A program made the translations under genes and the position numbers. A model generated the notes under the pieces. The model was not told where the DNA came from and made no database searches. It worked only from the letters and a program-made list of their open reading frames with translations. A DNA stretch of 64,000 bases from Octopus vulgaris (taxonomy: Eukaryota): contig OX597821.1 in the NCBI GenBank assembly GCA_951406725.2, positions 12,710,001-12,774,000 of the forward strand. The letters are read 5' to 3'. Shown here one piece after another: positions 20,143-59,310 of the stretch (position 1 is the first letter of the stretch; each line of letters opens with the position of its first letter).

Positions 20143-20146
<4 letters not shown>

Positions 20147-20835
20147 GATTAAACGCCACGCATTTCCAAGTAAGTTATATCTTAATATTATCGATGTCTT
20201 CCTGTTGTTTTTCTTCCCTTCGTTTTCTCTCTCTTCTTATCTCTTCTTCTCTCCCTTTCGTTTTCCTCTATCATCCTTGTTTTCCCCTCTCCTTCCCCCT
20301 TATCTGTTTGTCCCTCTCTCTCTCCCTCACTCTTCTGCCTTTGGTCTTTCGTGGCACGCATATTACCGTCGGCCACTTTCTTCTAACTTGAATGTCTTTG
20401 TTTCTCTCTGATGAGTCACAGGGATTGGAAGCATTCTTGCCTGTCTCCTGTCAGAGCTTGTTCACCACGTTCACCAACTCAACTCGTATAGGCTTAGCAG
20501 CCTTTCCAGTCTGTTTTCACTGTCTTGTTTTTGTTACTAACTATGACCCTCCGCATAATCCCAAATTTTATTTAATTTGATTTGCGGGAGTAACTGTTAT
20601 ATCGAAAACGTATCTTGTTGTGAAATGCTCGAAATACGAAGTAGTAAAACAGCCAACAACTGATGAAGAATCGTTTTTTCTTGTTCTTTGTCTTGTTTTC
20701 CGTTTGTTTCTTTTGTTGTTCGCTAAAAATGTTCGTATTGCATGTTGTCGTGATTCGTATTTCAGATGGTTTTCGTATTTTATATTCATTTTATGTTGTT
20801 TACCTTCCGTGCTGTCCTGTGCTGATATATGGATG
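20143..20835 (+). mobile_element. (TA)n-flanked non-coding element, family H1 copy 1 (carries permuted hammerhead)
   Basis: Collinear with 58632-59310 (+) and 24382-24955 (-): pyrimidine tract, gtttttgttac..tgaccctc..aatcccaaat, 3' gtcctgt. Confidence 0.75.
20609..20671 (+). ncRNA. Putative non-circularly permuted hammerhead ribozyme, core intact
   Basis: cgtat-C-ttgttg tgaaat gctc-GAA-atacg (15 nt) caacaa-CTGATGA-agaat; stem III cgtat/atacg, stem I ttgttg/caacaa, cleavage triplet AUC. Confidence 0.7.
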
Positions 20836-21266
20836 TACATATATATGTGTATGTTATGTATGAGCATATATATATATATATGTGTGTGTTGCTACAATGT
20901 GTACAAATTACACGGAAAAATAAATAAATAGTTAACGGAGCAAAATTTCACTAAGTGCCAAGTATGTTACAGCCTACTTATGAAGTTAGAAATTCCAGGG
21001 TTCGGTGAAATGCTTTTGTATTACATAGATAAATTAATAAATGGAGTTAAACGCATGTGTTATTCAAATCTTTATATAATTCAGAGATGTGTCGAAGAAA
21101 ACATTGCTATTAGTCTTGAGGGAATAATACCATTCTTTTCTTCGGAACATATGTCGAAAGTATAAAGATTTGAATAACATCGCGATTAAATCCAGTTCTT
21201 AATTCATTTTGTGTAGAGGCGGTACCATGGCCAATGAGATACATGCGAGGCGTGGTTTTTGCTAGT

Positions 21267-21299
<33 letters not shown>

Positions 21300-21355
21300 T
21301 AAATAACACACATATATACATTATAAGTAATATATGTGTACATATATATATATAC

Positions 21356-21403
<48 letters not shown>

Positions 21404-21487
21404 AGGTCCCGGGTTGATTCGGGGTTAACCGCAGTAAGTAAGGTACTCAATACATAGCAGAGTAAAATTAATTTATTATATAGAAGG

Positions 21488-21538
21488 AGCTTCTACAGGA
21501 CTAGTACTGTTTCATTCAAGAGAAATCTTCAGGAAGCT
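21488..21538 (-). ncRNA. Type I hammerhead ribozyme with near-palindromic stem III (Penelope-type)
   Basis: agcttc-CTGAAGA-tttctcttgaat-GAAA-cagtactagtcctg-TA-gaagct. Confidence 0.75.
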
Positions 21539-21981
21539 ATTTAACAAGAATTGTATTAGCATTTATACATTTAGGCAGGTTTAAAGGAGTGGTGGTGGGG
21601 GACTTTTTTGGGGGTAGGCATAGCGCAAAATATCATACTTGGGGGAGTGGTCAAGGAGTCAGTGGTAAGTTAGATGAAAGAATAGATAAATAAAAAAATA
21701 GATAAATAAAAAAATAAAAAATAAAAAAATAAAAAAATAAAATAAAATAAAAATGAGAAATAAAAATAAAAAGATAAAATAAAAGAATAAAAAAATAAAA
21801 AATATAAATATAAAAAATATATATAAAAAAAATATATATATAAAAAATATATATATAAATAAAAAATATATATATAAAAAAAAGGGGGGATAGAGTTATA
21901 GGTAAATAAGGAGATTCTCACTTATACCTATACACACATTTATACCTATCTACACACACATACACACATACACATATATAT

Positions 21982-22034
<53 letters not shown>

Positions 22035-22394
22035 CCTACACATACACACATACATACATACAAATTTACATATACATATATATATATATACAATCCAATA
22101 CAGGCCCATTCCCTAATTTTAATTTTATTATCTTCATTTATTACTTTTGTTATCTTTGATCGCTAGGGCTAAGAATCCTGGCAGTGGCTGCCTGTCCATT
22201 TGTCTGTCTACTAGAAGGCAAGTACTCATTCCCGCACGCACACTCATTAGCACGTACATTCACCCATTCGTACACTCATACACATACACGTGCGCACGCG
22301 TTATATTCATACATACAAACATCTACATACGTTCACGTATATACACATACGTACTCGTACCTACAGATTCGTGTCTACACTTTAGGAGGCTAGT

Positions 22395-22511
22395 CTATAC
22401 ATATACACCAATAAATATACATATACACCAATAAATATACATATATATATATATATATACCCGCACATACATACACACACACACATATATACTCCTACAT
22501 ACAGATACATA

Positions 22512-22563
<52 letters not shown>

Positions 22564-22750
22564 CATACACCTACACACATACATATACACACACATACAT
22601 ACACATATATATACATACACAAACATATATACACACACATATATATACATACACACATACACACATACATACGTATACATACATACATACATCCATACAA
22701 CCATACTTACATGCATTTATACGCATACACACACCCATCTATATATATTC

Positions 22751-22781
<31 letters not shown>

Positions 22782-23061
22782 CTCACACATACATATACAA
22801 ATCTACGCACACACATACATACATACACGTATACGCATACACACACATACACATATACATGCGTACCCATACTCGTGCACACACGCACGCGCATCCATAT
22901 ATATACACACACACACATATATATATACACGTGTGCAAGCATACATACATACTCATACGCGCACACATACTTACAAATACATATATGCACACACTTACAC
23001 ACATATATATACATACACATATACATGCATACATACATATATGCATACATACACACACGCA

Positions 23062-23103
<42 letters not shown>

Positions 23104-23210
23104 TATATATATATATATACATATACATACATACATATATACACATACACATACATATACATACATAGACATACATACACATACATACACATACACATAC
23201 GTACACACAT
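22395..23210. repeat. Compound (TA/CA/CATA) microsatellite field
   Basis: Direct reading; source of many spurious H/T/Y/I ORFs. Confidence 0.9.
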
Positions 23211-23211
23211 A

Positions 23212-23348
23212 GGAAAGATGCATCATTGCTCATGTCAATGCCCAGGTCACGCACTGATTTTGACTCAGGGATTGCAATTCTTCCTGGGCCAGTGTATCCA
23301 GTCTCACGTCAACCTGCATTAAACTGCATGTTGTTGTCCTCAGCCCAC

Positions 23349-23351
<3 letters not shown>
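23212..23351 (-). repeat. Inverted duplicate of the 5' end of the adjacent LINE fragment
   Basis: Reverse complement of 23408-23586 apart from a 38-nt and a 1-nt deletion; (TA)28 between the arms. Confidence 0.95.
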
Positions 23352-23407
<56 letters not shown>

Positions 23408-23410
<3 letters not shown>

Positions 23411-24314
23411 GTGGGCTGAGGACAACAACATGCAGTTTAATGCAGGTAAGTTCCAGGCCCTGCGCTACTGGCACACAAAGTTAAATGACGTGAAGACTGG
23501 ATACACTGGCCCAGGAAGAATTGCAATCCCTGAGTCAAAATCAGTGCGTGACCTGGGCATTGACATGAGCAATGATGCATCTTTCCAAATGCATATTTCT
23601 AATCTGGTGATAAAATGCAGACGGCTAGCTGGATGGATTCTCCGAACTTTCAGAACAAGAGAGAAGGAGACACTGATGGTCCTATGGAAAACATTCGTCC
23701 TTAGCCGCTTGGACTACTGCTCCCAACTTTGGTCACCACACAATATAAAACAAACAGCAGAACTCGAAGCAACTCAGAGAAGCTACACAAAGAAAATCGT
23801 CTCAATGCAAAATGTCAGCTACTGGGAAAGACTGAAGGTATTAAACCTCTTCTCCCTGGAACGGAGGCGGAAGAGATATGCAGTGATATACATCTGGAAA
23901 ATCCTGGAGGGTCTTGTCCCAAACTTTGGCATTCAAAGTCACTCCAACCGCAGAACGGGGCGCCGCTGCGTGGTGCCAATGATTCCAACATCACCATCAA
24001 AATACAGGTCCAGATACTGCAACAGCTTGGGTTTCAGAGGACTACAGATCTTTAACATCCTCCCTAAATGCCTGAGAGACTTACATGGTGTGGATGTGGG
24101 TTTCTTTAAAACTAAGCTGGATCTCTTCTTGTTGGGAGTCCCAGATGAACCTACCTCACGACAGGAGACACGGATGCGGGCAGCAGCATCGAACTCCCTT
24201 GTTGATCAAGTGCCACGTATCAGAGGTGGATTCACAAACTAGTGTAGCTCATTCAGCGGTGGTGCCCCAGCATGGCCGCGACCTTCGGGCTAAAACATTT
24301 TTAAGGATTTAAGG

Positions 24315-24318
<4 letters not shown>
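23408..24318 (+). mobile_element. 5'-truncated CR1-group LINE: ORF2 C-terminus (open to stop at 24242) plus 3' UTR
   Basis: WAEDNNMQFNAGKFQAL, VRDLGI, WKTFVLSRLDYCSQLWSP, ELEATQRSYTK, SYWERLKVLNLFSLERRR; tail (TTAAGGAT)2; (TA)n on both sides. Confidence 0.9.
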
Positions 24319-24381
<63 letters not shown>

Positions 24382-24385
<4 letters not shown>

Positions 24386-24952
24386 TATATGGGTACAGGA
24401 CGTCACAACGCGTAAAAACCACGAAATACGCAGGCAAATATGGGTATGCGAAGAACGAGAGAAACAAATGTTAAACAAAACAAGTAACATAAATAACGAC
24501 CCTTCATCATTTGTCGGCTCTCCTTCTACTCCTCATTTCGAGCAATTAACGACAATATGAGGCTTCGAAAGGCAGCTGCTCCCGCGAAGCAAAATAAGAT
24601 TTGGGATTTGCTGAGGGTCAAACTTGGTTACAAAAACAGGACAGGAGAGACATACAACAAACCAAGTGAAAGCCGACATGGAGGGCCGTTAAGCCAGACG
24701 AGGGAAGGCAGTGAAAGCTGGAGAAATATTGTATTTGACAAGGGAAATGATAGAAGAGGAGACAGATAAGAATGGGTCTGGTCTGTAAGACAAACTGTAA
24801 GAAAAGAAAGTTGATCACGCGAGGAAAAGAAGGATGGGCGATGGTCACATGTGAGCAGCGATAGAAAGTAAAGGAGAAAGAGAGAGAGAGAGACAGATAG
24901 AAAACAATAAAGGGGAGAAAAAAGAATTATAGAAAGGATGATAGGTAAACAA

Positions 24953-24955
<3 letters not shown>
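24382..24955 (-). mobile_element. Family H1 copy 2
   Basis: Reverse-strand homolog of 20143-20835; (TA)n on both sides. Confidence 0.7.
24499..24562 (-). ncRNA. Permuted hammerhead, copy 2 (C3 changed to A)
   Basis: cctcat-A-ttgtcg ttaatt gctc-GAA-atgagg (14 nt) cgacaa-aTGATGA-agggt; compensatory changes in stems I and III relative to copy 1. Confidence 0.65.
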
Positions 24956-25014
<59 letters not shown>

Positions 25015-25524
25015 ATATCTACAAATACACATACACACATGCATATACATGAATCAGTTCTGTTGCAAGCAAGCGACTTTTAGACTATTTCTCGTCAACA
25101 TATTAAGTACCAGTAATATAATGGGCTATATCCAACCGTCTGTACACTCCCCATCCCAGTAAATATCCAAATATCTTACGGTATTCCAATATCAGTTACC
25201 CCACACCTCGACTTCAACCCCTTCATCGTCATTCTCGACTTCTGCATTATCATGTCGGATTAAAAGCAAAATCTAAGAGAATAATGTCTAACAAATGAAC
25301 AAACAAACGAAAATAGAATGGAAGCGTAAAAATAACACAGGAAGAAAGAGAAAATCACGCATCAACAACAAAAACAACTCCAATACAAATATTATAATAT
25401 TATAATGTGGGAGTATTTTGCCATACACAAGGAAATTGAAATGCCTTTACTTTCACTCAAATTTGGCTGGGTTGTGTTGGACACTTGATGTACTTTGTTT
25501 TAGTGTTTTCCTTTAGGTGTTTTA

Positions 25525-25525
25525 C

Positions 25526-25582
<57 letters not shown>

Positions 25583-25641
25583 CATTATTATTTTTATTAT
25601 TTTTATTATTATTATTATTATTTTTATTATAATTATTATTA

Positions 25642-25676
<35 letters not shown>

Positions 25677-25714
25677 GTTGTTGTTATTATTATTATTATC
25701 ATTATTATTATTAC

Positions 25715-25750
<36 letters not shown>

Positions 25751-25773
25751 CATTATTATTATTATTATTATTA

Positions 25774-25804
<31 letters not shown>

Positions 25805-25836
25805 CATATTATTATTATTATTATCATTATTATTAT
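25525..25836. repeat. (TAT)n trinucleotide tract, with opposed (AAC)n(AAT)n tract at ~26058-26170
   Basis: Direct reading. Confidence 0.95.
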
Positions 25837-26096
25837 TTTGGTTCTCTTCTGCTTTTCGAATTTCTATCATTATTTTAGTAAAATGGAACTTTCACAGATC
25901 ACTAGATCGGGCTGCAGGAAAAAATAAATAAAATATGTGGGGGGAAAAAAGATGGGGAAATGAGAAAACAAAATATTCAGCATAAAAGAAAAGTAATAAA
26001 CAGCATAAAACATCATAAAATAAACTGAAAATAATCGCAACAGCAACAACAAAAGGGAACAACAACAACAACAACAACAACAATAATAATAATAAC

Positions 26097-26173
<77 letters not shown>

Positions 26174-26984
26174 CTAACAAATGTCGTCCCCCCGTTTTTT
26201 TTATTTTCCATAAAATAGAAAATAATGAAAACAAACGAGAAAAGAAGAGACGGGTGTGTACATGGATGGGTGGGGGTGAAATTGAGGAGGAGATAAAAAA
26301 AAAGACAGAAATACCGTCGCCACTTTTCAGTTACCAAATATTCCTGCCTTGTAATTTCTCAACCATTTATTCCTTGAATGCTTTTATTCTCTTGCTATTG
26401 CTGTTTGTCATTAGCTGACGGATGGTTGTCGGTTGTTGATGTTGTTGTTAATGTTAGCAATGGTATCGGCGGCGATGATAAAGGGAGCGGTGGCAAGCGG
26501 TGGCCGCGGCGGCTGCGATGCTGGTATTAGTGATGGAGTTTTTGATGTTGTACTTTGTGGTAGGTAGTGGTGGGAGTGGACGAGTGTTCTTGTTGTTCAT
26601 ATTACTGGTGTTGTTGTTGTTATTGTCGTCGTTGTTGTTGTTGTTGCTGTTATTAGTGGTTGTGGTGGTGTTGGTGGTCGTGGTACCGGTGATGATGATG
26701 GCTGAGATGGTTTTGTTGGTGGTGCTTATTAGCGGGCGATGATGATATCGATGAGAATAATGAAGACTGTGATGATGATGATGATGATGATGATAAGCAT
26801 GATGATGATGATTGCTTAGTGGCGAGTGTAGGAAGTCATGGTGGTGTAGGTGTAAGTGTTAGCTTTGGCGGCAACGATATTGGGTATGTAGATTATGGTG
26901 ATTAGTGCTGGTGTGTGACTAGCCGTGATGGCACACGCACTCTTATCGCAGCCATGGCACTGGAGGTGGTATGTATATGTGCTA

Positions 26985-27361
26985 GTCTTTTAGTCTTTAA
27001 TTTGTTTCAGTAATTTGACTGCGGCCATGCTGGAACAGCGACTTTAGTTGAACAATCGACCCCAGGACTTATTCTTTGAAAGCATATTACTTATTCTATC
27101 GGTCTTTTTCGCCGAACCGCTAGGTTAAGGGGACGTAAACGCACCAAAATATATTGTTACGCGATGGTAGGGACACAAACACAGACACAAAAACGTATAC
27201 ACACACATATATGTATGTATATATGACGGGTTTCTTTCAGTTTTTGTCTACCAAATGCATTCATAAGACTTTGGTCGACCCGAGGCTATAGTAGAAGACA
27301 CTGAACCCGGAACCATGCGGTTGGTAAGCAAGCTACTTACCACACAACCATTTTTGTGCCT
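26985..27361 (-). mobile_element. SINE family A
   Basis: Reverse complement of the 33735-34135 type, small internal deletion. Confidence 0.85.
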
Positions 27362-29849
27362 TTGTATAATGGTTGTAGTTATACATTCTGCCGCTGTATT
27401 GTGCTTGCGCGGATGGTGGAATTGTTGTTTGTGTTAGATAGATAACGATAGCTTGAGTGGCGGTATTAGTGTTGTGGTAGGAGTCAAAGAGAGAATGGAT
27501 GTAGTTTAGTTGATGTAGCAGCACACCATAGCTGCTGCTGGAGATTAGCAAATTTACTGTTGACGTTTGGCCCCAGGTCAACCATGAACGAGCATACCTA
27601 CAATCAAGCTCATTTGATCATAAACCCATTTTGCCTCTTATGGACTCTGAAGAGAACTGAAATAAACAAAGGAAATGCATTGCACCACACAGAAGCTGCT
27701 GGAGATGTTCAGAGCTATTGCAGATCTAGTCTTTCTCATTCACGAAATGAGCCGCACCCCACTTAATTTTGCTCAGATTGCTTTCAATTTTGATGTATCG
27801 ATGCAACTCTAAATTTTGACTACTATCAACCAATTACTTTATCTCGTAAATTAAAGAATCTGATGTTATTTTGAATTAAATTTGGGAAATTTGAGTAATT
27901 TTAGCCAATCAACAGAAAGCGTGGCATTAGCAGCCTGTTACCACGACAACTGCATGCTGTGTTGTTGTTCACCGTTGTCAGTGCTGCGGTTGTCTATGTT
28001 AATTTTTCACACTTGATTCTTCAAACCACGAGATGCTTTTCACTCGCGTGTTTTGTATTAATTTTTCTCTGTGTTAGTATATTACATATTTTTCTGTGCT
28101 TCTGTGTGTTAGTATTTTTCTGTACTTTTTCTGTGTATTAGTATTTTTACAATTTTTTTCATTTCTTTATATTTTGGGGACTCATTGACTCAGCTGGATT
28201 TATGATTCGACTAGGTTAATAAAAAGTTTAATTATGCGTATTTCTTAAACCGTTAGATACACATTTCAATAGAATAACCGAAATTAATCCACGTAGCAGG
28301 AACTGAGAGTGATATCGTGGAGCTGTGGGTTGACATTATTTTTGACTTCTGCATGCAAAAACGTACAAGATGCAGGTATACTTTTCCTTGGGACAAATTC
28401 TTTGTTGACCAGTGTTATTCTTATCGTAGTTTACAAATCCAAGATTGAAAACGTTACCAAACTTTGGAGTTTTAGAGACAGACGCATCCTTTTCACACAC
28501 ATACACACACCATGAAGAGACAAAAGGAACAGTAAGATGATATATGTTGATTTTATTAGGTATTTCTGTTTATTTAGAAACCTACAATGAACAGGTCATA
28601 CGCTAAACTACGAATTTCACAGAGTACAACCTTAAAGTTGACGCCGCTCCGCTAAATGCAGAAAGTTTCTGTCTCGCTATTGGCTATAAATACACAATTT
28701 TAAAACTTTTAAACCTCTGTAACCTTTTTCACCAATTTTTTTCTCCACAACATCATCCCTTCAAAGCAATGAGACTGGAATCTACATTCTTATAACCCAT
28801 TTTCAGATTTTTTTTTTTACTTCCTTTTAAAAAAATGCATATTTTGTGAATGAAAAAAACTAAATCCGCTATAACAAGTGCTCCTTCTGATTTCATCGCA
28901 ATATCGGAAATCCTTCGTTATGATGAACAGGCTCACGGCATTTTGCCCCCTAGCCTTCATACTTTACCAGGACTGTATTAGTTTTCGCCTACGGAAGGGT
29001 TTCACCAGCGATTCCTAATCAACCACAGCCAACTTGAACTAGCTTCAGATGCTATGCTTATTTCCTTTGTGGTTTTCTTCAGTTCGAAACCAATATCCTG
29101 CAACAAACAGCACACCAGACCAAGTGGAGGGCCACAGCAGCTTACTTCAAGAAAGAATAAAACTGTGTATTATCTCTTGACAAGTGCTTCGTCGACGAAA
29201 TCACGCGACCATATTATCAAACTTATCCAATTTGTCTTTCAGAAAATAAAGTGTTTCTTTAATGATTTGCCGCTATTTCTGTCAGTCGGACAACTACAGA
29301 TAGGCTCCTTCCTTGATTTGAGGGATGGCCATTTAGATGAGGATACTCATGCTGATGATGCTAAAGATTGGTAAAGGAGTATTGTATATGCTACTGTTGA
29401 TATCACAACTGGAGTTGATGCGGTTGCGTCTATTGTTTTAGTTGATGAAGTTGTTTAACCTGAGGTCAACTCTGAATGGTCAGATTTATCACCAATGGCA
29501 TATCAGCCGTGGTTATCATGACTTACTTATTCATACATTTATGTATTTCTCATGTTCAATGTCTTTAGGAGTGCGTTATCCCAATTGGCTTTCATTTCTC
29601 TCTCGAAAGGTAATAGCGCATAATTAGAGATTTTGCTGCTATTTCTAGCAGATCGAATGGCTACGTAGAAGCCAAGATGGAGGTGGTGTGGTTGCGATGG
29701 TATCACTGAGATGCTAATGATAGCGAAAATTGAGCATGATGTTGAGGGAGATGTGTAATGATGCTGACATTATTCTGGTGGCTCAATTACTGTTAGGTCT
29801 GAAGGGTTTTGGCGATTCTGAAATATGGTTATTGCTCCGTTGGTATTCG

Positions 29850-30390: not shown

Positions 30391-31234
30391 GTGATAAATC
30401 AAAGATTAGTAAGAAATCAATGTCCAAACAACCTGTTGTGCACACGTGAAGGAAAGTTTAGCGGCTTTTCGATCGACAGAGAATAAATTTTACCATTTCT
30501 TTTATTCTTTATTTCCTTTCACTTTTTGCCTGAAAACTGTTCACGTATTTGCAATGAGTCCTTCCACGTGATCACATATAGAAACAAACACAGATACATA
30601 CATACATACAAACACGCACACAGTTATTGGTAAATAAATGCATCCATAGTGAAACAAAACAATATACACATGCATATAAACTACAAATGTGCAAAAATAT
30701 TTCGTTCAGGGACATGTTTTGGTCTAAACTTAAGTCAAATAATAAAGTGATATTCATACCCAGGATTATATCAGTTGACGTTATTACACATTATAAAAAA
30801 CTATATGGTAAAACTCGCCTTCGTAAATATATATACGAACATCTGTATACGTGGAAAATTAGCACTTCTGTCTCTTTGTATAGCTACGTTTTTTTTTTCT
30901 GTGTGTGTACGTATGTGTGTGCTTGAGTTTGTTTTTGTCCAGTGATAGAAAAAAATTACGGCGGTTGCACGACTATAAACACAGTATGGTGTAGAAGCGT
31001 AGGTGAAAATTAGAAAATAGGTGGTAAATTATGTTAATATATTTTGCTGTTTGCACGAAACAAATGGTTCGATTACCATTTGATTATTATTATTCGTACC
31101 TCTATGTTTACAAATATTTTCTTTCATTCGTTAACTAGATGTGTAGATAAATAGATAAATAGGTAGACAGATAAATAGATAAAGTAACAGACAGGTAGAC
31201 AGACATAAATAATTGTGTGTGTGTGTGTGAGTGA

Positions 31235-31271
<37 letters not shown>

Positions 31272-31747: not shown

Positions 31748-31750
<3 letters not shown>

Positions 31751-32449
31751 GGATGTGTTATGAACTATTCTGCACATACAAAAACAGCCATACCCACAAT
31801 CCAACATACCTCCATCATCAGCTGCCCCACGGATATCACTATGGTTTCGACACCTGGGGAGTACCATTCAATCCGGCGGTGTCAACAGCGCTAAAATAAG
31901 TATTGCTTAGGAACAAACATACCTTAGATATCACCAAATCCATTCAATCTTAATTCTAGGAAGGATTAAACAATAATATTATGAATTAAACTATAACTAA
32001 TAAACACATTTACCCTATGTACTACAATATCAGTAAATAAATTCAATAAGTAAGCCTATAACTAACTCCTAAATTATATAACTATATAGCGACCAATCCT
32101 TTAACTTCATACAGACAATATTCTTACCAATCTTCCATAGTTATTAATATAAAAGTAAAAACTTTATATTCTGTTCTCTCCAGTATATAAAAGTATATTG
32201 TGAATATAAGGCGAATATTATGACTCAACGACTGAAAAGTATTCGCTTTATTCGATATCATAATATTTCTAATCAAGCGAGATTATGTCTCTGAAACCAA
32301 GTAAGTGAGATATTGAAAGTTATGGACAATGCAACGTTGGAGTTGATCTCGTTTTCCAGGGATCTGCAAGCAACGACGAACATGCTTTGACCGAATCAGA
32401 ACGGCAGACAACATCGATCATGCGTCGGCCGAATCCCATCTGGTTGTGA
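31748..32449 (-). mobile_element. (TA)n-flanked non-coding element, family H2 (carries permuted hammerhead)
   Basis: ~700-bp island bounded by (TA)n on both sides, no ORF; single copy in the window, so element status is inferred. Confidence 0.45.
31809..31867 (-). ncRNA. Putative non-circularly permuted hammerhead, second family, core intact
   Basis: atggt-A-ctcccca ggtgtc-GAA-accat agtgatatccg tggggcag-CTGATGA-tggagg; stem III atggt/accat, stem I ct.cccca/tgggg(c)ag, cleavage triplet GUA. Confidence 0.65.
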
Positions 32450-33734
32450 TATATATATATATATATATATAGTATGTAGAAAGGCCGACGATTGATATTC
32501 ATCTCGTGCTTAGATTTTGGTTACCTGAAGCTTTCCAGCCCACTTACCGAAACATTTATTTGTTCATCTTACTTTTGCTACACTATATAAGCAACAGAAT
32601 GAATCATTGATCTTATTTTCGTGTGCTACACTTCAAAGTATTCTAAAAAAACCTGCACGCGATTTTGTATAATTTTACGTATAACATTTAGTTACAAATA
32701 CTTTTGGTCACTACAAGTTGCACAAATTAAAATGTAAACGAAAGGAAATGACTCATATTGACGAAAACAAGATCTTTGTCACAAAAGTTGATATTTCTGA
32801 AACGAAATAATTTCCCAGAAATTAGCAAGTAATGGTACTCTACAGAAATGATTTATAGTATACGACTTAATCAAAATGCTGTGCTTGTAGGGAAGTTGTA
32901 ATAACAAAAGGAAATTGTAGAGGTTATCACAACGCTATAACCCTTGCGGCTATATATATTGCTGACTGTTACTAGCAGTCTTGTTTACAGCAGAGAAATT
33001 GGTTGGATCTTTATGCTCTCACTGGGAATATATTTCGATCTCGTCAGGAAACGGATGTTTATCCACGTGCGTATAAAACTGTTCCAGAATTTTATATCTT
33101 TATATATATATATTTATATGATTGGTCATGCATAGAGGAACATGACTAGGATGTAATCAAAACAAAATGTTTTCAATGAATCACGTGGTCCTAGCTATTA
33201 AAATTTCTCACTTAATGCTAAGACCCGTGCTAGATCGTGCATATGAAAATGTGTTTCCACTATATTTTGTGTAATGCTATTATACTTTCCCATGGAGTGT
33301 TTAGTCCTTACCGTTATTTCATCAGTGAGGAAACTTCAGAAATTCTAGGATATTACGGAAGCGATTTCTCGCATTCAGCATGGATACAAATTGAGAAAAT
33401 CTTTGCGAATAGTTCTATAAATATCTACTATTTTTTCCATTTTCTCTAATCTTTTGAATGAAAGCAGGCGAAAGCATTGTAATGTTGCTAAGATCAGTTT
33501 GCAAACTGGTTTGAACTCCCTATTGCACTGGGTGTTAGACCACCTAAAGGAAATCCCCTCCACATCAAATCATACCAACCGGCAAACACATAGTTTCTAA
33601 GTTAAGTATATGTAGTCGTTTTTATTACACTGGTGCTGCTTCTATTTTATATTTGAAATGTTGTCAAACGTAAGCATTGTTAGGACATACCTGTACATAG
33701 TTTTCACACAATATTTGTAAAAATTGCATATATA

Positions 33735-33888
33735 GGCGCAGGAGTGGCTGTAAGGTAAGTAGCTTCTTTACCAACCACATGGTTCCGGGTTCAGTTCCAC
33801 TGCATGTCACCTTTGGCAAGTGTCTTCTACTATAGCCTTGTGAGTGGATTTGGTAGACGGAAACTGAAAGAAGCCCGTCGTATATATG

Positions 33889-33921
<33 letters not shown>

Positions 33922-34135
33922 TTGTGTGTCCGTGTTTGTCCCCCCTAGCATTGCTTGACAACCGATGCTGGTGTGTTTATGTCCCCGTCACTTAGCTGTT
34001 CTGCAAAAGAGACCGATAGAATAAGTACTGGGCTTACAAAGAATAAGTGCCGGGCTCGAGTTGCTCGATTAAAGGCGGTGCTCCAGCATGGCCGCAGTCA
34101 AATGACTGAAACAAGTAAAAGAGTAAAAAGAGTAA
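33735..34135 (+). mobile_element. SINE family A, near full length
   Basis: tRNA-like head (tggctgtaagg..gggttcagttcc), central (TA)(TG) tract, tail ggcggtgctccagcatggccgc..(GTAAAAGA)n; degenerate relatives near 36985 and 57580. Confidence 0.9.
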
Positions 34136-35427
34136 TAGTTTTTAGATAAAAAAAGAAACACTCCTCGATTGATGCATATAAGTCGTGGAGTGGCGTGGCC
34201 GTAAGATTCACTTCCGGTTCGTTTTGGGCACGTGATTTTGATGCGCCACAGAGAATGGCATCGATGCTCATCGTTCCTGAATGTGAGTTAGGATAAGCTG
34301 TTTCGTCTGTTCATGGTTTCAGGTGTTTCAACACCTGGCGCTTTGAGTTGCTTCCACCTCGCTAGTGTCAGCCGGCCGGCAAATATACATGTGTCAATGT
34401 GTGTGTGTGTGTGCGTGTGCGTGCGTTTGCGTGCGTGCGTGTGCATGAGTGTGTGTGTATGTGTCTGTATATGTGTATGCGAGTTTTATTTCCATTCTCA
34501 CATCCAAGGACAAAATTAACCAATGAATTCACAGTGAGTGGCAAGATAAAGCAAAATCGTTTCTTCTTACGGTAAAACAGTGTGCCGTATAACGAATACG
34601 TATTTTCAACGTAAGTAACAAGGACTGGGCGGAACACATTTATTGAAGCAAATCTTTAATACATAACATAATAAAACTTCTCTTGTCATTGTGAGACACT
34701 GTTTATATAGCAATTTCAGATTGGCGGAAGAATCTATAAATACGGCCCTAGTGTATGACTAATATCGACCAGTACATGGTTGTGAGTAAAGAAAATAAGC
34801 ACTGCAAGGCTTGAACTCAGAATATAACGGTCAGGATTAAATCCTGTAACGCATTTTTTCCGATATCGGAACGACTCTCCCATCCACCGCGGTATTAATT
34901 TTGGTGTAGTTGTTATCTACGAAAACACCTTCGGTTTGTTTGATTTTTATGTATCTCTGCCCAAGATATATTGGCGAAATTTATTGGAAAGCTATTTTGA
35001 GAATAGATCTTCCTTGGAATGAACACTGATTCATTGGATGTTACGCAGGAAGTTATCGTCTCAAGCCTGCTTTAAATTTTCAACTTCATGAATTCTTTAC
35101 CTATACATACCAGAAAGACATGGTTTTGATTTTGATTCATATTTTGAATAATGGAGACATTTACAGTTGGAATGATGGCCGTATCGTATGACATTCCTTG
35201 CGTTTGTTAATAGGCAGGTCTCTTTACATATAAATTACGTATACGCATTTAGGACTTTGAAGCATGCAAAATAGGGTTCAGTCATCTAAAATAATATACG
35301 ACATTGCATTTCATAGTTCCCTGTCTTTTCAACACAATGCACATTATATGTACATTCATACTCTAAAAATATACATACGTATATCCATGTAAATATATGC
35401 ATATACATACATATATATATACATACC

Positions 35428-40671: not shown

Positions 40672-40866
40672 CATAATAGATCGTTAGCTCCTACACGCAT
40701 TTTTTTCTCTCCTTGTTTTTTTTTTCTGTGTATCTTTCTGTCGAAGAGCGTAGGTTCGAAACGTAAAAGACATTTTATATTTCTATTCCTGGGCGCTATA
40801 CTAATACATTTGTTTGTTTGTACTCCACCTGCCTTCGTCTTTTGTTTATTTTCGTAAACTTTCCCG

Positions 40867-40868
<2 letters not shown>
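40672..40868 (+). mobile_element. ~200-bp (TA)n-flanked element resembling a Penelope pLTR fragment
   Basis: Bounded by (TA)n on both sides; contains the minimal hammerhead at 40733-40770. Confidence 0.55.
40733..40770 (+). ncRNA. Minimal type I hammerhead variant (CUGUCGA core)
   Basis: tcttt-CTGTCGA-a-gagc-gtag-gttc-GAAACGTA-aaaga. Confidence 0.55.
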
Positions 40869-48200: not shown

Positions 48201-48338
48201 ATGCTACTTTATATCTTACAAGATAAAAGATAAAGTAATTTACGTTCATTCTAAGATAGAAGAATTCAGGAAAAAAATCAGGAATAAAGTTCAGCTATTG
48301 ACTATATTACACATTTCTGTGATTAAATGATTTTAACT

Positions 48339-48725
48339 TTTTTACTCTTTTACTTGTTTCAGTCATTTGACTGCAGCCATGCTTGAGCACCGCCTTTTAG
48401 TCGAACAAATCTATCCCAGGACTTATTCTTTGGAAGCCTAGTACTTATTCTATCGGTCTTTCTTGCCAAACCGCTAAGTGGCGAGAACGTAAGCACATCA
48501 GCATCGGTTGTCAAGCGATGTTGGGGGGACAAACACAGACACAAAAACACACACACATATACATATATAGGACGGGCTTCTTTCCGTTTCCGTCATCCAA
48601 ATTCACTCACAAGGCTTTGGTGGGCCCGAGGCTATAGCAGAAGACACTTGCCCAAGATGCCACGCAGTGGGACTGAACCCGTAACCATGTGGTTCGTAAG
48701 TAAACCACTTACCAGTCCTGCGCCT
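48339..48725 (-). mobile_element. SINE family A, full length
   Basis: Reverse complement of the 33735-34135 type. Confidence 0.9.
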
Positions 48726-50653: not shown

Positions 50654-52325
50654 CATTGTTGAATTAACAAGTATATCAATGCTCCTATTTTACACACGCG
50701 CGCGCGCATCAGTATGTAAGTCTTACCTCTAATGATAACATAAATTGATAATGAGGATAGAATTGAATAGATTACTTTAAAAATGTATCCTAATTTCTTC
50801 CCGACGCTGAAGAGCATTGCGCTACAATCTGGCCATGGATCCTGACGTTTAAACTTCAAGACAAAACCTTTCCTTATCGTTTAGTTAGTGGGGGGAAAGG
50901 GTCGTCCTCATATCTTTTTTACAACCTCATACACTGGTGGATATAATTAAGGATTGTAGCTGCTAATCCGATTTCAAGCCCCGCTTCCAAGATAGATGCC
51001 CAGAGGTGGTGTTGAACCGGGCGATGGATTAAATCTACCTCCCAAATTCTAAACGGTGGGACTTGAAAACAGAACACAAGGAGCAGGGTAAACACTGAAA
51101 GTCATTTCGAATGTTCTTCTAACGTCTCTGCCAATTTTCCCTCAAGAAAGGTTTAGCCGATCCAAGGTTTAGTGTCTAATTCACTGTTTATACAAATTCG
51201 CACTTTAAATTTTAATTTCCTATTTGAAATCAGTTCATTTGGTTGATTAAAGTTCTTGGGAGTGGAATGCATATCTCATCTTCTGATGTTCTCTCCCCAT
51301 CAAGGAATGTAAATCTTATGCCGATGTAGGAAAAAATTATAGTTTTATTGTTGGTGACATTTTCGCATTTATTCATTATCAGTCTTCATTGTACATTTAT
51401 AGAGAATTTGTGAGAAATATTCTCCTAAACAACCCGACTTATTCTTTTCTGACAAGGCCTGTGTTCTGAAAAACTAAAAAATATTTCTATAGGCTTTTGA
51501 CCTTTGTTCTCAACTCTATTTTGGTTAAAGTTTTTTAACGTTTTCAAAAAAGAAAAGGAAAAACATTTCCTTTTGACCTGGGTAGTTTAATATTATCCTG
51601 GAATAAAAGTGTCGAGAAAGTTAGACGATATCTAATTGTCTCCTATTATTCTTTGAATAACGTTTGTTGATAAAAGGTCAAACTAAAAGAAAAGAATTCA
51701 CAGACTAAGTAGTATAACATTTAGAACGTAATAGTAAGAATTAAAAAAAAATTAAAGTAGAAACAAAAAAGAAAAACAGCTTTGGTAATACAATTATAAA
51801 AATAAAGGTAACTGAACGAGGGAATCTGATGCTTTATAAACAATACATGATCATTACATTGTTTGACGATTAAGTAGAGACTAATGTCCATATAGATATT
51901 ATATCCCTTTGTTAGTTGAATCGGTGCCCAAGTTCGTATCTCCTTACGAGCATTGTAAAACGCAAAATACAATTGAACTCAAGACTAGAGTAAATTTTAA
52001 GCTCTGTCGTGCAGCCTCGGATTCCTTTGGTAGTTTAGATGATTACAATGCAATATGTATCTTGTAAAATTTCCAGTGACCATGGCATCCATTCTCAGAT
52101 TTAAAAGAACTGCCCAAATAAGCAATGCAATCCATCCGGTGGATTGGAACTCAGGTAATTATCAGTTAATGATACATTGAGTTATCCACTTGTATCCCAA
52201 GCATCGGTGCCTATCATAAACATTGAGAGTGTAAGGTTTTGTAAGTCTACATGCTAGAGATGACAGTTTAATAACGTTAATACCACCAGTATCTATCTTA
52301 AAGAAGGAGGGGTTACATTTTATGA

Positions 52326-53444
52326 TACGAGGTCGTACCAAAAATATCGCACCAGGGATAGTTCTATAGCGCGCCAACAGATGGAAGCATACGGATGCAT
52401 GTGCAGTGAGAGCTAGTAGTGATCTTCATGAGGCTGTCCACCCAGGGACATTGTTCTGTTTACTTCGCAAATTGTGAAATTTGTGTTTTTGTGATCACGT
52501 GTATGCTGTAACCTGAATTATGTCATGGGCAGGAGCAAAAAGCCAACGTCAAATTTTGCGTTAAACTTGGGATGTCTGCTACAGTGATATTAAGCATGCT
52601 TCCACAATTTATGGTGACGAGGAAATGGGTCATACATAATGTTTCGAGTGGTACGGGCCCTTTCGAAGCAGAAGGTGGTTCCTGGATGACGATAAGTAAT
52701 CTGGAAGACATGCTACACGCGTCATTCTCGGAAATGTATTATTGTGCATCAAGAATTTGTACCCAGAGCCAGGCTATCAATCGAGTTCTACTTCGACGTT
52801 TTAAAGCGTTTGAGGGACGAAATTCGGCGAAAGCGACCGGATTTATGAAGCGCAAACAACCAGACTCTTCAACAAGATCTTCTCACTCATAAGTGTTTGC
52901 TAAAACAATATTGTATCGCTTTTGCACCCTCCCTATTCGCCAGATTTAGTACATGCGGACTTTCGTCTCTTGTCCAAGATGAAAGTGCAGCTCAACGGTT
53001 ACTATTTTAACACCAAGGTGGTGAGCTGGCAGAAATGTTAGCATGTCAGGTGAAATGCTTAGCGGTATTTCGTCTGTCTTTACGTTCTGAGTTCAAATTC
53101 CGCTGAGGTCGACTTTGCCTTTCATCCTTTCGGGGTCGATAAATTAAGTACCAGTTATGCACTGGAGTCGATGTAATTGACTTAATACCTATGTCTGTCC
53201 TTGTTTGTCCCCTCTATGTTTAGTCCCTTGTGGGTAATAAAGAAATAGGTTACTATTTTAACACCATTTTCGAGAACCAGCGCGAATCGCAGAAGATCTT
53301 CGACTCACCGGAATCCATAAGGCCGGATTCCATTAGTGGTAGGAACGCTGGAACTAGTTACTAGGAGATAATGTTAATTCTTTGGCAAATAAGTTATTTC
53401 TTACTAAACGTAAGTGGTCCGGAATGTTTTAATGCCAACTCGTG
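52326..53444 (+). mobile_element. Decayed mariner interrupted by a SINE
   Basis: tacgaggtcgtaccaaaaat ... gttttaatgccaactcgt; EQKANVKFCVKLGMSATVILSML; LHPPYSPDL. Confidence 0.85.
53015..53247 (+). mobile_element. SINE family B nested in the mariner, 19-bp TSD
   Basis: ggttactattttaacacca at 52997-53015 and 53248-53266. Confidence 0.9.
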
Positions 53445-56342
53445 TAGTGCTCGGAATTCTGTCTGATTAAATAAACAGCTGATCGTACTTGGAAGGATTT
53501 GCGCCATGAATCAGCTCGATTCGATCTGATGCATGATGAAAGCAACGGCAACAACAGCTGCAACAAGCTCAACTAAACAGCAAATCGATAACAAGAAAAT
53601 GAAGAATAACAACAGTAGCAACAACATGGCTAAACCTACCACTCTTATTGATACCAAAACCTACTTGCCGGTTTGGAGAGGCCAATTTTAGGCTTCCAGG
53701 AAATAAGAACAGTGACAGGGTAACTTACATGAACTGTCTTCATGCGGCAATATTCCCATTTGGCTTAGGGCAGCGATTTGGCAGAAACGTTAGCAGGCCG
53801 GGCAAAATGCTTAGCAATATTTCGACCGTCTTTACGTTTTGAGCTCAAATTCCGCCGAGGTTGACTTTGTTTTTCATCCTTCAGCGATCGAAGATATCAG
53901 TACGAGTTAAACGCTAGATTTGATGTAATCTCCTGTACCCCTCCTATGAAATTGCTGGCTAAAATTCAGAATCACTGATTTCCTCACGTTAAAGCAATTC
54001 ACTTGAATAAGTAGTGACTCGATTCGTAGTAGATCAAAATGACAGCCAACCTTACTAATATCGGCAAGCCTGCGCAGACAGTGGGCACAGATGTCCTTCT
54101 AGAGCAGCCAATTAAAAAAAAAAATTTGCTCTAATTTTACTATTTTCAACGTAAAGTAACATCTAGTAAAGCCAATTTCCTTTATTCATTCTTTTTTTTT
54201 TCTAAACTGCTTTAAATTCATATCTCGTACTTTGTTTTTATTGACCACGTAAGGACTTTAATCGGGATATACGACGTAGAGTTTGAAACCTGACGATTAA
54301 TGCAATGATAAAATATCCCAGCTCCTTGTGCCTGCGGTTGTATCCATTCCGCGAAGGGAGCATTCAAATTGAGAAATGGAGCAGATTGAACCACCCACTT
54401 GATAGTTGTGAGAAATTTACAAACAATTGTGAAACCACAAATAAAATGACAATGTAATTCTCCATATTTTCCATCATCTCCCATTCTTTTGTGCTTAGTT
54501 TATGGTTTTATCATACGTCACATACTGTTTTACTCGCTTTTTCATTTCTGTAGATTTATTATTATTCCTTATTCTGCCATATGATCATTCCAAAAGGAAA
54601 AAAAAAGCGGGAGTAGAAACGAAAGAAAACTAATTTCGACGCCGTAACTCACGTGCGAATTTTTTTGCTATAATTCAGAACTTCACTCGTTTATCAAATA
54701 TTGTTTTGGCAGTTTTCTACGCCAATTCTAGTAAAATTCTATATGGGTTCAGCTGTCATACGTAAGATAAAAATTACAGCAAAAATCGTCTTGGCACAAT
54801 TGGAAATCGTATTTCTAAGCAAGAATAGAAATATTGGTTTCAAATTTTGGCACAAGGCCAGAAATTACGCGGAAGGAACTAAGTTGATTGGATCGATCCC
54901 AGTGTTCAACTGGTACTTATTTCATCGAAGGACGAAAGGAAAAGTCTATTCTGTTAGGTCGCTGCTTTAATCTGAGGAAATCATTGAATTGATGAATATA
55001 GCATAATCACTAATATGAAACTTAAACTTTTAAGATTAAACTTTGATTTTGAAACCATTCCTACAGTCTCCAACAGAGTGAATACGGATTGTGATAGATG
55101 GGTGAAGCGTATATATATTTCATGAAACTAATGCTTTACTTAACTGAGGAGGTTTTATATATTTCTAAACGATACATAAATCAGAAGAGATCTTTGTGTC
55201 ATTTTCAACTAGAATGAAATTGGGATTCGAAACCCAATCCTTGGAATGACACACAACGAGGTTAATGCAAATCAGAGGAAGTGCTGAAACTAGCAATTTA
55301 ACTGTAGTTGCCATAAGATAATTGTTCTCTTCCATAATTTTTGTATTTCTAAATAGAGGAACGAATGCTATAATATTTATTAGTTATACTGTCACCGTGA
55401 AATGCTCTGGATATCAAGTAACATAATTATACACTATGTCAATGTTTATTGCCTTAGATACACGCATTAGGAATAAATAAATATATGAAGAGTCAGTTAA
55501 TGTGTGACCTTTTATAATATGCAACACTAGTGAAGCGTTGCTACCAAAATAGGGTTTTCGTTCTCTATTCCTGAATAAAATAATAGCATAGTTGATGAAT
55601 ATATTTCTACACAACGCTTGTGAATCACAGCGAACATATTCAAAGATCTTAATTAACTAACAATAAGGACGAAACGAGAAATAGTGAAACTGGTTCCGAT
55701 ATCAGAACTCATCTGTAGCTGTTTTGTATACAACCAAATTAGCATTGTATAATTTGTCAGAGGTCCTGTGCATAGTTGCAGTGTTTTGATTATAAATATA
55801 TATATACAACACTAGCAGCATTAGAAATTACCAAAACGAGGAAGCGTTTCCCGACAAATTTTCTCAACCAATCCCTCCCAGATTTATTGATTCAAAGTCG
55901 TAAAAGTACATATAGCTATATGAACAAATAAGGGAGAAACCTTCCAAAATAGCTTTGTGTGGGTATACATATAATTGTATAAGCATATAAAAAGAACCAC
56001 ACACACACAAACCTATATGTGAATATGTGATGTAATTAATATATTGCCTAGTAAAGCGCCACATTCTTTGCCTTGATAAGAGTTCATAATTGTCCGGTAT
56101 CTTCCAATAGTTTAGAACCCCTCACGGGTGCTAAAGGATATGAATGTTATTCCTTACACTTTTGGTAAAAATCAAATGGCTTTCTGCACAATTTCCATAT
56201 CCTAAAATCCACTCCGAAACTATCGCGCAGAAAAGAATTACAAGTGTACAAGTGTAACTGGTGTAGTGAGAAATTACACTTTATGAAGCAATGTTCATTT
56301 ATCAGGTACAGCTATGTCTACAACAGTATTCATACACATATG

Positions 56343-56575
56343 AAGGCGGCGAGCTGGCAGAAAGGTTAGCACGTCGGGCGAAATGCGTCGCCGTATTTCG
56401 TCTGCCGTTATGTTCTGAGTTCAAATTTCGCCGAGGTCGACTTTACCTTTCATACTTCCGGGGTCGATAAATTAAGTACCAGTCACGCACTGGGGTCGTT
56501 CTAATCGACTTAATCCGTTTGTCTGTCCTTGTTTGTCCGCTCAGTGTTTAGCCCCTTGTGGGTAGTAAAGAAATA
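56343..56575 (+). mobile_element. SINE family B, 16-bp TSD
   Basis: agtattcatacacata at 56325-56340 and 56576-56591. Confidence 0.9.
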
Positions 56576-56923
56576 AGTATTCATACACATACAAACTACA
56601 CACACGTACGCGCCTACATATACATATAAATATAAAAGAGACGTGCGTGTGTGTGTAGACCATAACAAGTCGTGAGATGTAAAAGGTGAATATATTTAAC
56701 TACCTGAAATTCGATAAGGTCACCAAACTTCTGATATTTATGGTCTATATACAGCTCACGAAACAATTTCATTGACCGATTGCCCTGGATTTCACCTACA
56801 TAGAACTCCGCATTATAATACTATCTTTTGGATTATTATACGGTATGTTAGTGGGGTGCAGGAGTGGGATTCCTGTAATTGCTAAATTATTTCATGAATC
56901 TATACTGCACTACAAATATATAC

Positions 56924-56989
<66 letters not shown>

Positions 56990-57124
56990 ATAGGTAGATA
57001 GATAGATAGATAGAGATAGAGATATATGAGTGTATGTGTGTCTATACATATATATACTTATCTATATATATGTGCATGTATATGTGTACATGTATGTATA
57101 TAAAAACAAACTGGTGTATGTATG

Positions 57125-57178
<54 letters not shown>

Positions 57179-57485
57179 TAAATTTAAATACAAGTTAAAA
57201 TAATAACCTTAAAATAACCATCCAATGAATTACTGGTTTGTTACCTATTATTTTGTTGTGAATAGTATCATTCCTAAAATAATAGGTTTAAGTATAAATC
57301 TTGGTTTACTGATATTCAAATTAAAATCCCCAAAATTGATAAGTAGGCTTATTATAATTTTATAAATCGAAAAGTAGGCATATTATAATATTATAAATCG
57401 AAACAGCTGTAAGTGAACCTGTTGAATATTTTTACAGTTGATGAATTCTATTAACGCTATTTCTTCATTTTCTGGATTTTAAATT

Positions 57486-57555
<70 letters not shown>

Positions 57556-57788
57556 TAATGTATATATTTAGGTATGTCTTTCTGTCTGTGTTATTTTTCT
57601 AACAGCGCTTGGCAACTGACATTGACATGCTGAAATTTAGCTTTTTCTACGAACAAAGCCGACAGAATTCATACCAGAAAAAAACCTGGGAGCGATTCGC
57701 CTAACTAAAATTCTTCAACACTGACCTCCACAAAGGCATGGTCGCAGTGGAACCATTGGAACAAGTAAAATATTGAAGATAAAAGATC

Positions 57789-57875
<87 letters not shown>

Positions 57876-58226
57876 TGTATGTATGTATGTATATGTGTAT
57901 GTATAGATCTATATATGTCTATATATGTATATATATATATGAGTGTGTGTGTGTGGATGAAATTACATGAACTAAAAAAGCTCTGGGAAATATTTCATAT
58001 ATAGTATTTTCTCGGGGACTTCATATTACTCTGTCGTCTCCCCCGCTCCCTGCAGTTTATATTCTTGTGAAATACATGTAATGGTTTGTATCACATATAC
58101 ACACATTTTGACACATAAACACAAGCATACAATCTACAGTAATGTATACATGTATACACTCACATTTATGAGTATATGTGTTTGAGTGCATATAAGTGTA
58201 CGTGATATCGTGTATACACATATGCA

Positions 58227-58263
<37 letters not shown>

Positions 58264-58267
58264 GTGT

Positions 58268-58572
58268 GGAGGCGCAATGGCCCAGTGATTAGGGCAGCGG
58301 ACTCGCGGTCGTAGGTTCGCTGTTTCGATTCCCAGACCGGGCGTTGTGTGTGTTTATTGAGCGAAAACACCTGAAAGCTCCACGACGCTCCGACAGGGGG
58401 CGGTGATCCCTGCTGTACTCTTTCACCACTCTTTCTCTCACTCTTTCGTCTGTTGGCCTGCTCGCTTAGCCAGCGGGGTGGCGTCATTCGAAGGCTAAAA
58501 CAATGCGAACGCATTGTGACCACCGATGTGTAACAACATCTGATGGTCTCGTCGGTCATATGATCACGTGAT
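58268..58572 (+). mobile_element. SINE family D head with tail 3
   Basis: ggaggcgcaatggcccagtg..gtttcgattccc head; tail ttgtgaccaccgatgtg..gatcacgtga(TA)n. Confidence 0.85.
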
Positions 58573-58631
58573 ATATATACGTATGTATATACGTATGTAT
58601 ATATGAATATATATATTATTTATATTATTAT

Positions 58632-59310
58632 ATGCTTGAACGACACGCATTCATTTCCACGTAAGTTTTATCTTAACAGTTCTGATGCGACATTTTCAAT
58701 TCTATTCTATTATTCTATTACTTTTTCGTTTTCTCTCTTCTTCTCTCTAATTGTTTTTATGTGTCCTTCTCTCCCTCTCGTTTTTCTTTCTTATCCTTTC
58801 TCTAATATTTTCTCTTTCGCCGTTCTCTGTCTGTCACTCTCTCTCTCTCCCTCACTCATCCGTTTTTGTTCTCTCGTGGCTCCCACGTCACCATCGGTCA
58901 TTTTTCTTTCTTACCTTATCTTGTGTTTCTCTCTTTCCTCCTGATACAGCTGGAAGAACCAGACGTATTCTTGTCTGTCTTCTTCTCAAGGTTGCTTCAT
59001 TTAAGCTTAGCAGCCCTTCCCGTTTATTTTCCCTGTCCTGTTTTTGTTACCAATTTTGACCCTCTGCAAAATCCCAAATTTTATTTTATGTGCTTTGCGA
59101 GGGCAACTGCATTATCGCATGCGTATCTTGTGAAATGCTCTAAATGCGGATTAGAAAAAAAGCCAACTGATGAAGGGTCGTCCTTTATTTTCCAATTGTT
59201 TACTTCGTTGTTCCCCAAAAAGTTCATATTCCATATATTCGTATTTATTATTCCATATTATCGTATATTTTGTTGTTTACGTTCTGTGACGTCCTGTGTC
59301 CGCATATGCA
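58632..59310 (+). mobile_element. Family H1 copy 3
   Basis: Collinear with 20143-20835; TA-rich flanks. Confidence 0.75.
59122..59178 (+). ncRNA. Permuted hammerhead, copy 3 (G12 changed to U, stem I shortened on both strands)
   Basis: cgtat-C-ttg tgaaat gctc-tAA-atgcg (15 nt) caa-CTGATGA-agggt. Confidence 0.6.

Follow-up and report, generated by a model that had tools for sequence, protein, structure and literature searches.

Seven islands lying among TA repeats in a 64-kb window of Octopus vulgaris DNA (assembly GCA_951406725.2, contig OX597821.1, positions 12,710,001 to 12,774,000; the window is this whole stretch, and positions below are counted from its first base) appear to be pieces of Penelope-like elements (PLEs), and four of them probably carry a hammerhead ribozyme of a rearranged, pseudoknotted kind whose cleavage is predicted. 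We number the islands I1 to I7 by their position within the window. The original prediction had located all seven correctly but had treated them as one class of element; they fall instead into five families with three ribozyme formats. A class of PLE tails sitting in TA repeats, as first framed, is known biology. What is new is the candidate rearranged hammerhead in four of the seven islands, which would be a variant form of a familiar ribozyme among elements said to lack one.

In I1, I3, I4, I6 and I7, GAAA or a one-letter variant of it precedes CUGAUGA, the opposite of the order in a type I hammerhead, and such an arrangement is common by chance (12 observed, 10.4 in shuffles). Because GAAA comes first, I1, I3, I4 and I7 fail the ordinary descriptors: no fit was obtained to a hammerhead of type I, II or III, and no unknotted three-way junction in circular order could be formed. 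In the fold that we propose, stem II arises from the pairing of an upstream strand with the bases directly before GAAA, stem III from the pairing of the bases that follow GAAA with an upstream strand whose end is NUH, and stem I from the pairing of the stretch after NUH with the one immediately ahead of CUGAUGA. The bases after CUGAUGA pair far upstream (helix P1), a hairpin (P2) then leads into the stem II strand, and another helix, P3, links stems I and II on their outer sides. Read from the 5' end, the first part of the RNA would contain P1, the hairpin P2, the 5' strand of stem II, P3, stem III with NUH, and stem I; a linker of 1-5 nt would separate this from the second part, in which the 3' side of stem II, GAAA and stem III come first, followed by P3, by stem I and CUGAUGA, and lastly by P1. 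The fold is pseudoknotted, its chain being interrupted between A9 and stem II by the insertion of P1 and P2.

The core is intact in I1 (20544..20673, plus strand), where stem II is formed by 20588-20592 and 20626-20630, stem III by 20609-20613 and 20634-20638, and stem I by 20615-20620 and 20654-20659; the AUC triplet ends at 20614, GAAA is at 20631 and CUGAUGA at 20660, and P1 (20544-20550/20667-20673) has two mismatches. It is likewise intact in I4 (31805..31904, minus strand), with stem II at 31883-31878/31854-31849, GUA ending at 31862, GAAA at 31848 and CUGAUGA at 31821; stem I (31861-31856/31827-31822) has one mismatch that is absent from the published consensus of the family discussed below. 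In I3 (24497..24620, minus strand; AUA ending at 24556), stem I has 6-7 bp, stems II and III have 6 bp each and P1 has 7 bp. Its C3 is changed to A, and most related contigs have C at this position, 24510 (56,800 of 59,044 depth in run X1). I7 (59057..59180, plus strand; AUC ending at 59127) is decayed, with G12 changed to U and three bases of stem I lost on each strand. CUGANGA, GAAA and NUH, together with stems I and III, are therefore present in S-G-C order in all four islands, intact in I1 and I4 and with one core change in I3 and I7. An intact block C, in which the stem II strand directly follows CUGANGA, was not found: that strand could form 2 bp in I1 and I4 and 4 weak bp in I3 and I7, as against the 5-6 bp of stem II formed with the upstream strand. 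The original prediction had labelled these stretches as hammerhead cores or relics; they are better regarded as parts of the rearranged fold than as remains of an ordinary hammerhead.

The origin of I4 can be stated by identity. On the minus strand, from about 32185 to 31748, it can be aligned with the 3' ends of Naiad_Ovul and Naiad_Obim (Craig et al. 2021, PMC8557442), with about 420 nt collinear by eye and about 11 differences, counted by eye, in the last 170 nt. This part of I4 (31748..32185, minus strand, 5' boundary approximate) is the 5'-truncated 3' untranslated region of the Octopus Naiad PLE, with its 3' end on (TA)16. The open reading frame (ORF) of the published consensus, with N-terminal GIY-YIG, CxC and reverse transcriptase (RT), is absent from the truncated copy. 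Naiads are described as PLEs with a (TA)n bias, 5' truncation and remnants in cephalopods, without a canonical hammerhead but in some cases with a "core" or "half core"; Naiad_Ovul itself is listed as (TA)n-preferring and marked "HHR_half_core" (PMC8557442). Since I4 belongs to a published (TA)n-preferring Naiad, its target preference was already known, as was the half core that the authors had noted in the family. The rest of I4 as first delimited (32186..32449) is not Naiad_Ovul by eye. A short TATATA connects these roughly 260 bp with the truncated end of the Naiad, and they end on (TA)11; they have no second copy in the window and no Rfam match of note.

I1, I3 (on the minus strand) and I7 are mutually homologous and constitute one ORF-less, high-copy family of about 690 bp with a CT-rich body. 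I1 (20143..20835, plus strand) is an apparently full-length copy of about 690 bp flanked by (TA)20 and (TA)4, I3 (24383..24955, minus strand) is 5'-truncated, lies between (TA)32 and (TA)28 and adjoins the tail of a long interspersed nuclear element (LINE), and I7 (58632..59310, plus strand) is a third copy with degenerate TA-rich flanks. A 5' start of 25 nt is common to I1 and I7 (92%). Identity between copies is 77-82% in the core and 61-69% in the flanking parts, in contigs of four runs no other part is covered as deeply as the core, and the majority letters in related contigs restore C3 and one P1 pair. Pile-ups of ends were not listed for these contigs, a kind of data that cannot show RNA ends. 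Core contigs have a depth of 82,352 in run X1 and 371,854 in run X2, compared with about 14 and 55 for locus-specific contigs; as a rough figure from contig depth, the family has thousands of copies. Twelve short words from the family gave no match to consensus sequences in the PMC8557442 supplement, and pattern scans returned one chance 21-mer in metagenomes and nothing in viral contigs. Other identities for the core were considered and rejected: by eye it has no quartet of a selenocysteine insertion sequence (SECIS) and none of the defining motifs of a twister or hepatitis delta virus-like ribozyme, and its box C/D matches in Rfam are weak (E 0.2-5).

Several lines of evidence argue for the rearranged fold. 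A strict permuted descriptor matched only I1 in the window, and matched in 2 of 100 shuffled windows; with one change allowed, it found I1, I3 and I4 together with an evident chance match at 30530. Applied island by island, it passed I1, I3, I4 and I7 and failed I2, I5 and I6, while of 300 shuffles of each island's own sequence it passed 1 for I1, none for I3, 5 for I4 and 1 for I7. As a control, 3 of 120 viral loci holding both core words in that order passed, two of these being the same stretch. When I1, I3 and I7 are aligned, pairing in each of stems I to III is 100%, four pairs are changed on both sides, and 90% of 90 cells pair, compared with 29-51% when the alignment is slid; 16 of 500 shuffles reached as high a value.

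The same split layout may recur in other Naiads. Naiad tails were compared by eye, and the 3' ends covered, which include 30 of the 62 places of one core word and the first places of six words, are a minority of the 54 families. Within this set the layout, with unrelated helix sequences, is clear in the cnidarians Clytia, Acropora and Morbakka, the crustacean Eulimnadia (Naiad_EuTe) and two Octopus records, where Acropora stands for three near-identical records and the Morbakka record was assigned from file order. The ends of the Omin, Adux, Skow-1 and Ppla Naiads showed no core in this comparison. Two nematode Naiad tails (supplement parts 14 and 15, PMC8557442) have the unsplit C-S-G order by eye, with the same joining helix. 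Both appear to contain a full type-CSG hammerhead, of which two metagenomic examples have been known to date.

A number of observations weigh against this interpretation. In whole-window shuffles the relaxed descriptor gave a mean of 1.29 matches, and the observed four were reached in 4 of 100; both the descriptor and the structure were derived from these sequences, so the shuffle counts are optimistic. The covariation rests on three copies, which is a thin base. Minimum-energy folds, computed without pseudoknots, miss the fold (z -1.4 to 0.4), and RNAalifold gave a different structure. In I3, I5 and I7 alike, one conserved base of the core is changed. The covariance model built from the I1/I3/I7 family misses I4 and I6 and found no further copy of the family. 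Among the Naiads compared by eye, the Beroe record is weak, with a stem I of 2 bp only, and Naiad_Esco, the Naiad-2_Skow end and two part-16 records do not fit the layout. Finally, no RT linked to the I1/I3/I7 family was found in the window. For this reason its Naiad-type parentage, which we consider quite likely, is inferred; the family and Naiad share only the ribozyme layout and the TA flanks.

Could the helices be the product of chance and of overfitting by eye, the islands being merely decayed repeats between ubiquitous TA tracts? The sequence is AT-rich, G-U pairs were allowed, the descriptor was devised post hoc and in its relaxed form gives chance matches across the window, and there are 79 TA tracts in 64 kb. 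Against this stand the strict match to I1, found in so few shuffled windows, the low rates among island shuffles and control loci, the double changes, the two-sided deletion, and the recurrence in four other genera, and we regard such an explanation as highly improbable. Somewhat less remote, although still improbable, is the proposal that the I1/I3/I7 motif is a plain type-SGC hammerhead, with stem II formed by the strand after CUGAUGA and the upstream pairing representing an alternative "off" or precursor conformer. Type SGC has been validated (PMC10085705), and a 4-bp stem II that includes two G-U pairs is possible in I3 and I7 with the strand that follows the core. However, with that strand I1 and I4 reach just 2 bp, and the tails of Clytia, Acropora, Morbakka and Eulimnadia by eye reach none; in these tails it is the upstream strand that pairs, for 5-6 bp directly before GAAA. 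In the three octopus copies, too, the upstream stem of 5-6 bp is fully paired.

It is also conceivable, but in our view unlikely, that the fold is real and non-catalytic, a hammerhead-derived structure kept as a binding or priming signal for the PLE protein. In favor of such a signal, the core region is conserved and covaries, minimal PLE hammerheads cleave poorly in vitro (PMC4209133), and A9 is not joined to stem II, a break never seen in known alignments. The copies run 114-221 nt past the predicted cut, so that the copied template was either uncut or still held together; yet ordinary PLE copies also run past their hammerheads, by 94 nt in I2 and 103 nt in I5. Moreover, CUGANGA, GAAA, A15.1-U16.1 and a cleavable NUH (AUC, AUA, GUA or UUC) are kept across families with unrelated helices, and binding alone would not need kept core words and a cleavable triplet. 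We favor a rearranged hammerhead, and judge it more probable than otherwise that it cleaves at NUH.

Established traits of PLEs (GIY-YIG nicking, target-primed copying and a bias for (TA)n) suggest how the islands may have arisen. A PLE RT/GIY-YIG endonuclease would have copied them into existing (TA)n tracts. A PLE protein cuts AT-rich DNA and primes reverse transcription (PMC11167929), and 31 recently active PLE families are reported in O. vulgaris (PMC13282606), so that partners in trans exist in the genus. The predicted cleavage at NUH, 114-221 nt before the 3' end of the element, would divide tandem or read-through transcripts, a role already suggested for the hammerheads of other PLEs. 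Because the cut is bridged by P1, P3 and stems II and III, its products would remain paired, and they could then be religated or copied across.

The contact with TA repeats can be expressed in numbers. Ten of the 14 island ends lie no more than 10 bp from (TA)4 or longer, compared with 3 of 42 ends of BLAST-defined copies of two families resembling short interspersed nuclear elements (SINEs) and 2.1% of random positions, a contrast that is inflated since the islands were originally chosen for this property. For I1, I3 and I7, whose limits are defined by homology, 4 of 6 ends are at TA and 6 of 6 within 15 bp of (TA)3. The islands mostly touch TA tracts, as originally described; exceptions are the I2 end at 21670, which is on an A-rich tract, both ends of I7, which are on degenerate TA-rich DNA, and the Naiad part of I4, which stops near 32185 at (TA)3 only. 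A preference for insertion into (TA)n is borne out by the excess over control ends, allowing for the ascertainment bias, and for I4 by the published preference of its family. Insertion into TA tracts that already existed would account for these contacts. That the elements generate (TA)n, as was also suggested, finds no support: the window holds 79 (TA)n tracts of at least 6 units, and island ends touch 10 of them (396 of 2269 bp). With so few tracts touched, there is no sign here that the microsatellite load is produced by the elements. A SINE-like family (33728-34140, 61727-62145, 48324-48713 and 26983-27367) has an internal TA/CA microsatellite in every long copy, and is a more direct microsatellite carrier than the PLE tails. 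Another (TA)n tract, (TA)28, lies at the center of an inverted duplication (23212-23586) that forms the 5' end of the truncated LINE (frame 23169-24242); the left arm lacks about 40 bp found in the right arm, so this is not a plain read artefact.

I2 and I5 are best read as ordinary PLE tails. I2 (21400..21670, minus strand) is a short, high-copy, PLE-tail-like element with its 3' end on (TA)21 and its 5' side on a T-rich tract. It contains a complete type I hammerhead (21488..21538, minus strand, core at 21532), in which stem I has 6 bp, stem II 3 bp and stem III 4 bp, with GUA ending at 21494, which is the one full type I motif that the ordinary descriptor found in the window (1% of 200 shuffled windows). 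Its minimum-energy fold is the three-way junction, with a stability no better than that of shuffles (z 0.26). The hammerhead is in the format listed for Hydra-clade PLEs (File S2, PMC8557442), but its loop III is longer, and I2 is not the same element as Hydra-1_Obim. With the neighbouring LINE as reference, the I2 family has a relative depth of about 1 in X2 and X4 and of about 0.02 in X1. This roughly fifty-fold lower value in X1 than in X2, although both carry the same organism code, may reflect a copy-number difference or filtering.

I5 (40672..40868, plus strand) is a 197-bp element between (TA)8 and (TA)16, with a minimal type I hammerhead of the PLE kind (40733..40770, plus strand, core at 40738) that lacks loop III and has GUA ending at 40765; a comparable match occurred in 0 of 200 shuffled windows. 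Stems I and II and a palindromic stem III are present, and the motif agrees with the dimer-type definition of Cervera and de la Pena (2014, PMC4209133) except that the CUGANGA core is altered by A6U. Changes at A6 lower hammerhead activity, the A6C variant being of low activity (PMC3088659). Single dispersed hammerhead motifs have been described as truncated PLEs (PMC4209133). I6 (57180..57487, plus strand) is AT-rich, lies between (TA)10 and (TA)32, and has GAAA before a CUGAUGA-like word; a 31-nt tandem duplication within it (57342-57403) doubles the word before GAAA. As a ribozyme it yields loose parses, with stems of 3-5 bp and two core changes, that we found unconvincing. The claim that each island bears a hammerhead core or relic stands for I2 in full and for I5 as a minimal motif with a core change, but I6 has no consistent fold. 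The Rfam matches of I2, I3 and I4 at E up to 10 include no ribozyme, and for the whole window the 150 matches listed, of 329, likewise contain none.

The islands may be viewed as 3' ends, solo pseudo-long terminal repeats (pseudo-LTRs) or short non-autonomous derivatives of several PLE families, which identity shows for I4 and which is inferred for the rest. The earlier description of them as non-autonomous PLE elements or solo pseudo-LTRs is upheld as to PLE origin, but I4 is the truncated tail of an autonomous family. No tandem or inverted pseudo-LTR arrangement was seen, every island being a single unit in the window. The islands had been described as lacking ORFs, and indeed none has a protein family match, though I7 holds a stop-free, low-complexity frame of 168 codons. 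Our protein scan covered, across the window and at the Pfam curated cut-off, 256 stop-to-stop frames that reach 55 aa and are not of low complexity, and the only matches above it were to Mariner HTH and a piggyBac-type DDE domain, none of them inside islands. It agrees with the prediction that the window contains no PLE RT or GIY-YIG, a weak negative, as the scan also missed the LINE tail at 23169-24242. The relics of the piggyBac-type transposase (DDE_Tnp_1_7) and of the two Mariner HTH domains are at 7072-7911, 4630-4827 and 15579-16070. The setting is otherwise repeat-rich animal DNA with several SINE-like families and transposon relics. A U4 small nuclear RNA match at 21205-21352 (51.5 bits, Rfam gathering score 46) consists of the U4 5' part running into an (AAT)n tract, like a retroposed fragment.

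Naiads and their short derivatives would rank among the most abundant repeats of invertebrate genomes. If the rearranged hammerhead is active, then with thousands of copies in Octopus the non-circular kind would be a frequent feature of animal genomes and not a rarity of metagenomes. If it cleaves, two statements would have to change, namely that Naiads are without a canonical hammerhead and that non-circular hammerheads, taken to be built of three indivisible blocks, come only from environmental sequences and one bacterium; standard descriptors and Rfam would be missing a large set of animal ribozymes, and the role of PLE ribozymes would become testable in a clade thought to manage without them.

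Among known systems, the islands resemble the animal non-LTR retrozymes (bioRxiv 10.64898/2026.07.22.740005) in being ORF-less, hammerhead-bearing and derived from PLE pseudo-LTRs. Retrozymes, in contrast, are by definition tandem arrays in which two or more units in succession carry a type I motif, whereas the islands are single and no such pair of units is present within the window. A closer parallel is offered by types SGC and CSG (Eckert et al. 2023, PMC10085705), both of which cleave in vitro and have a short linker between stems I and II and a helix joining them. The octopus fold shares with them the cyclic S-G-C order, the pseudoknot, the short stem I-II linker and the extra helix. It differs in that block C (CUGAnGA with its stem II strand), assumed there to be indivisible, would be split by two helices; PLE hammerheads usually have an unpaired base at this A9/stem II junction (PMC4209133). 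Types SGC and CSG came from metatranscriptomes, metagenomes and one bacterium, and none is given from an animal genome or retroelement in the available text. Hammerhead variants with extra helices are mentioned in passing or not at all in the accessible parts of PMC13725137 and PMC10162972, and the literature covered, which included few subscription papers, yielded no description of permuted hammerheads from Naiads or from any animal genome. On the sequence comparisons made here, we see about an even chance that Naiads and their short derivatives carry active hammerheads in a seventh natural wiring, non-circular and pseudoknotted, in which a conserved insert of two helices opens the chain between A9 and stem II, the Naiads of nematodes having CSG without the split. 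In the portion available, the published account of Naiads credits them with no canonical hammerhead and does not assign a fold to the half cores (PMC8557442); in the reading that we propose, these half cores would join into a complete, rearranged hammerhead.

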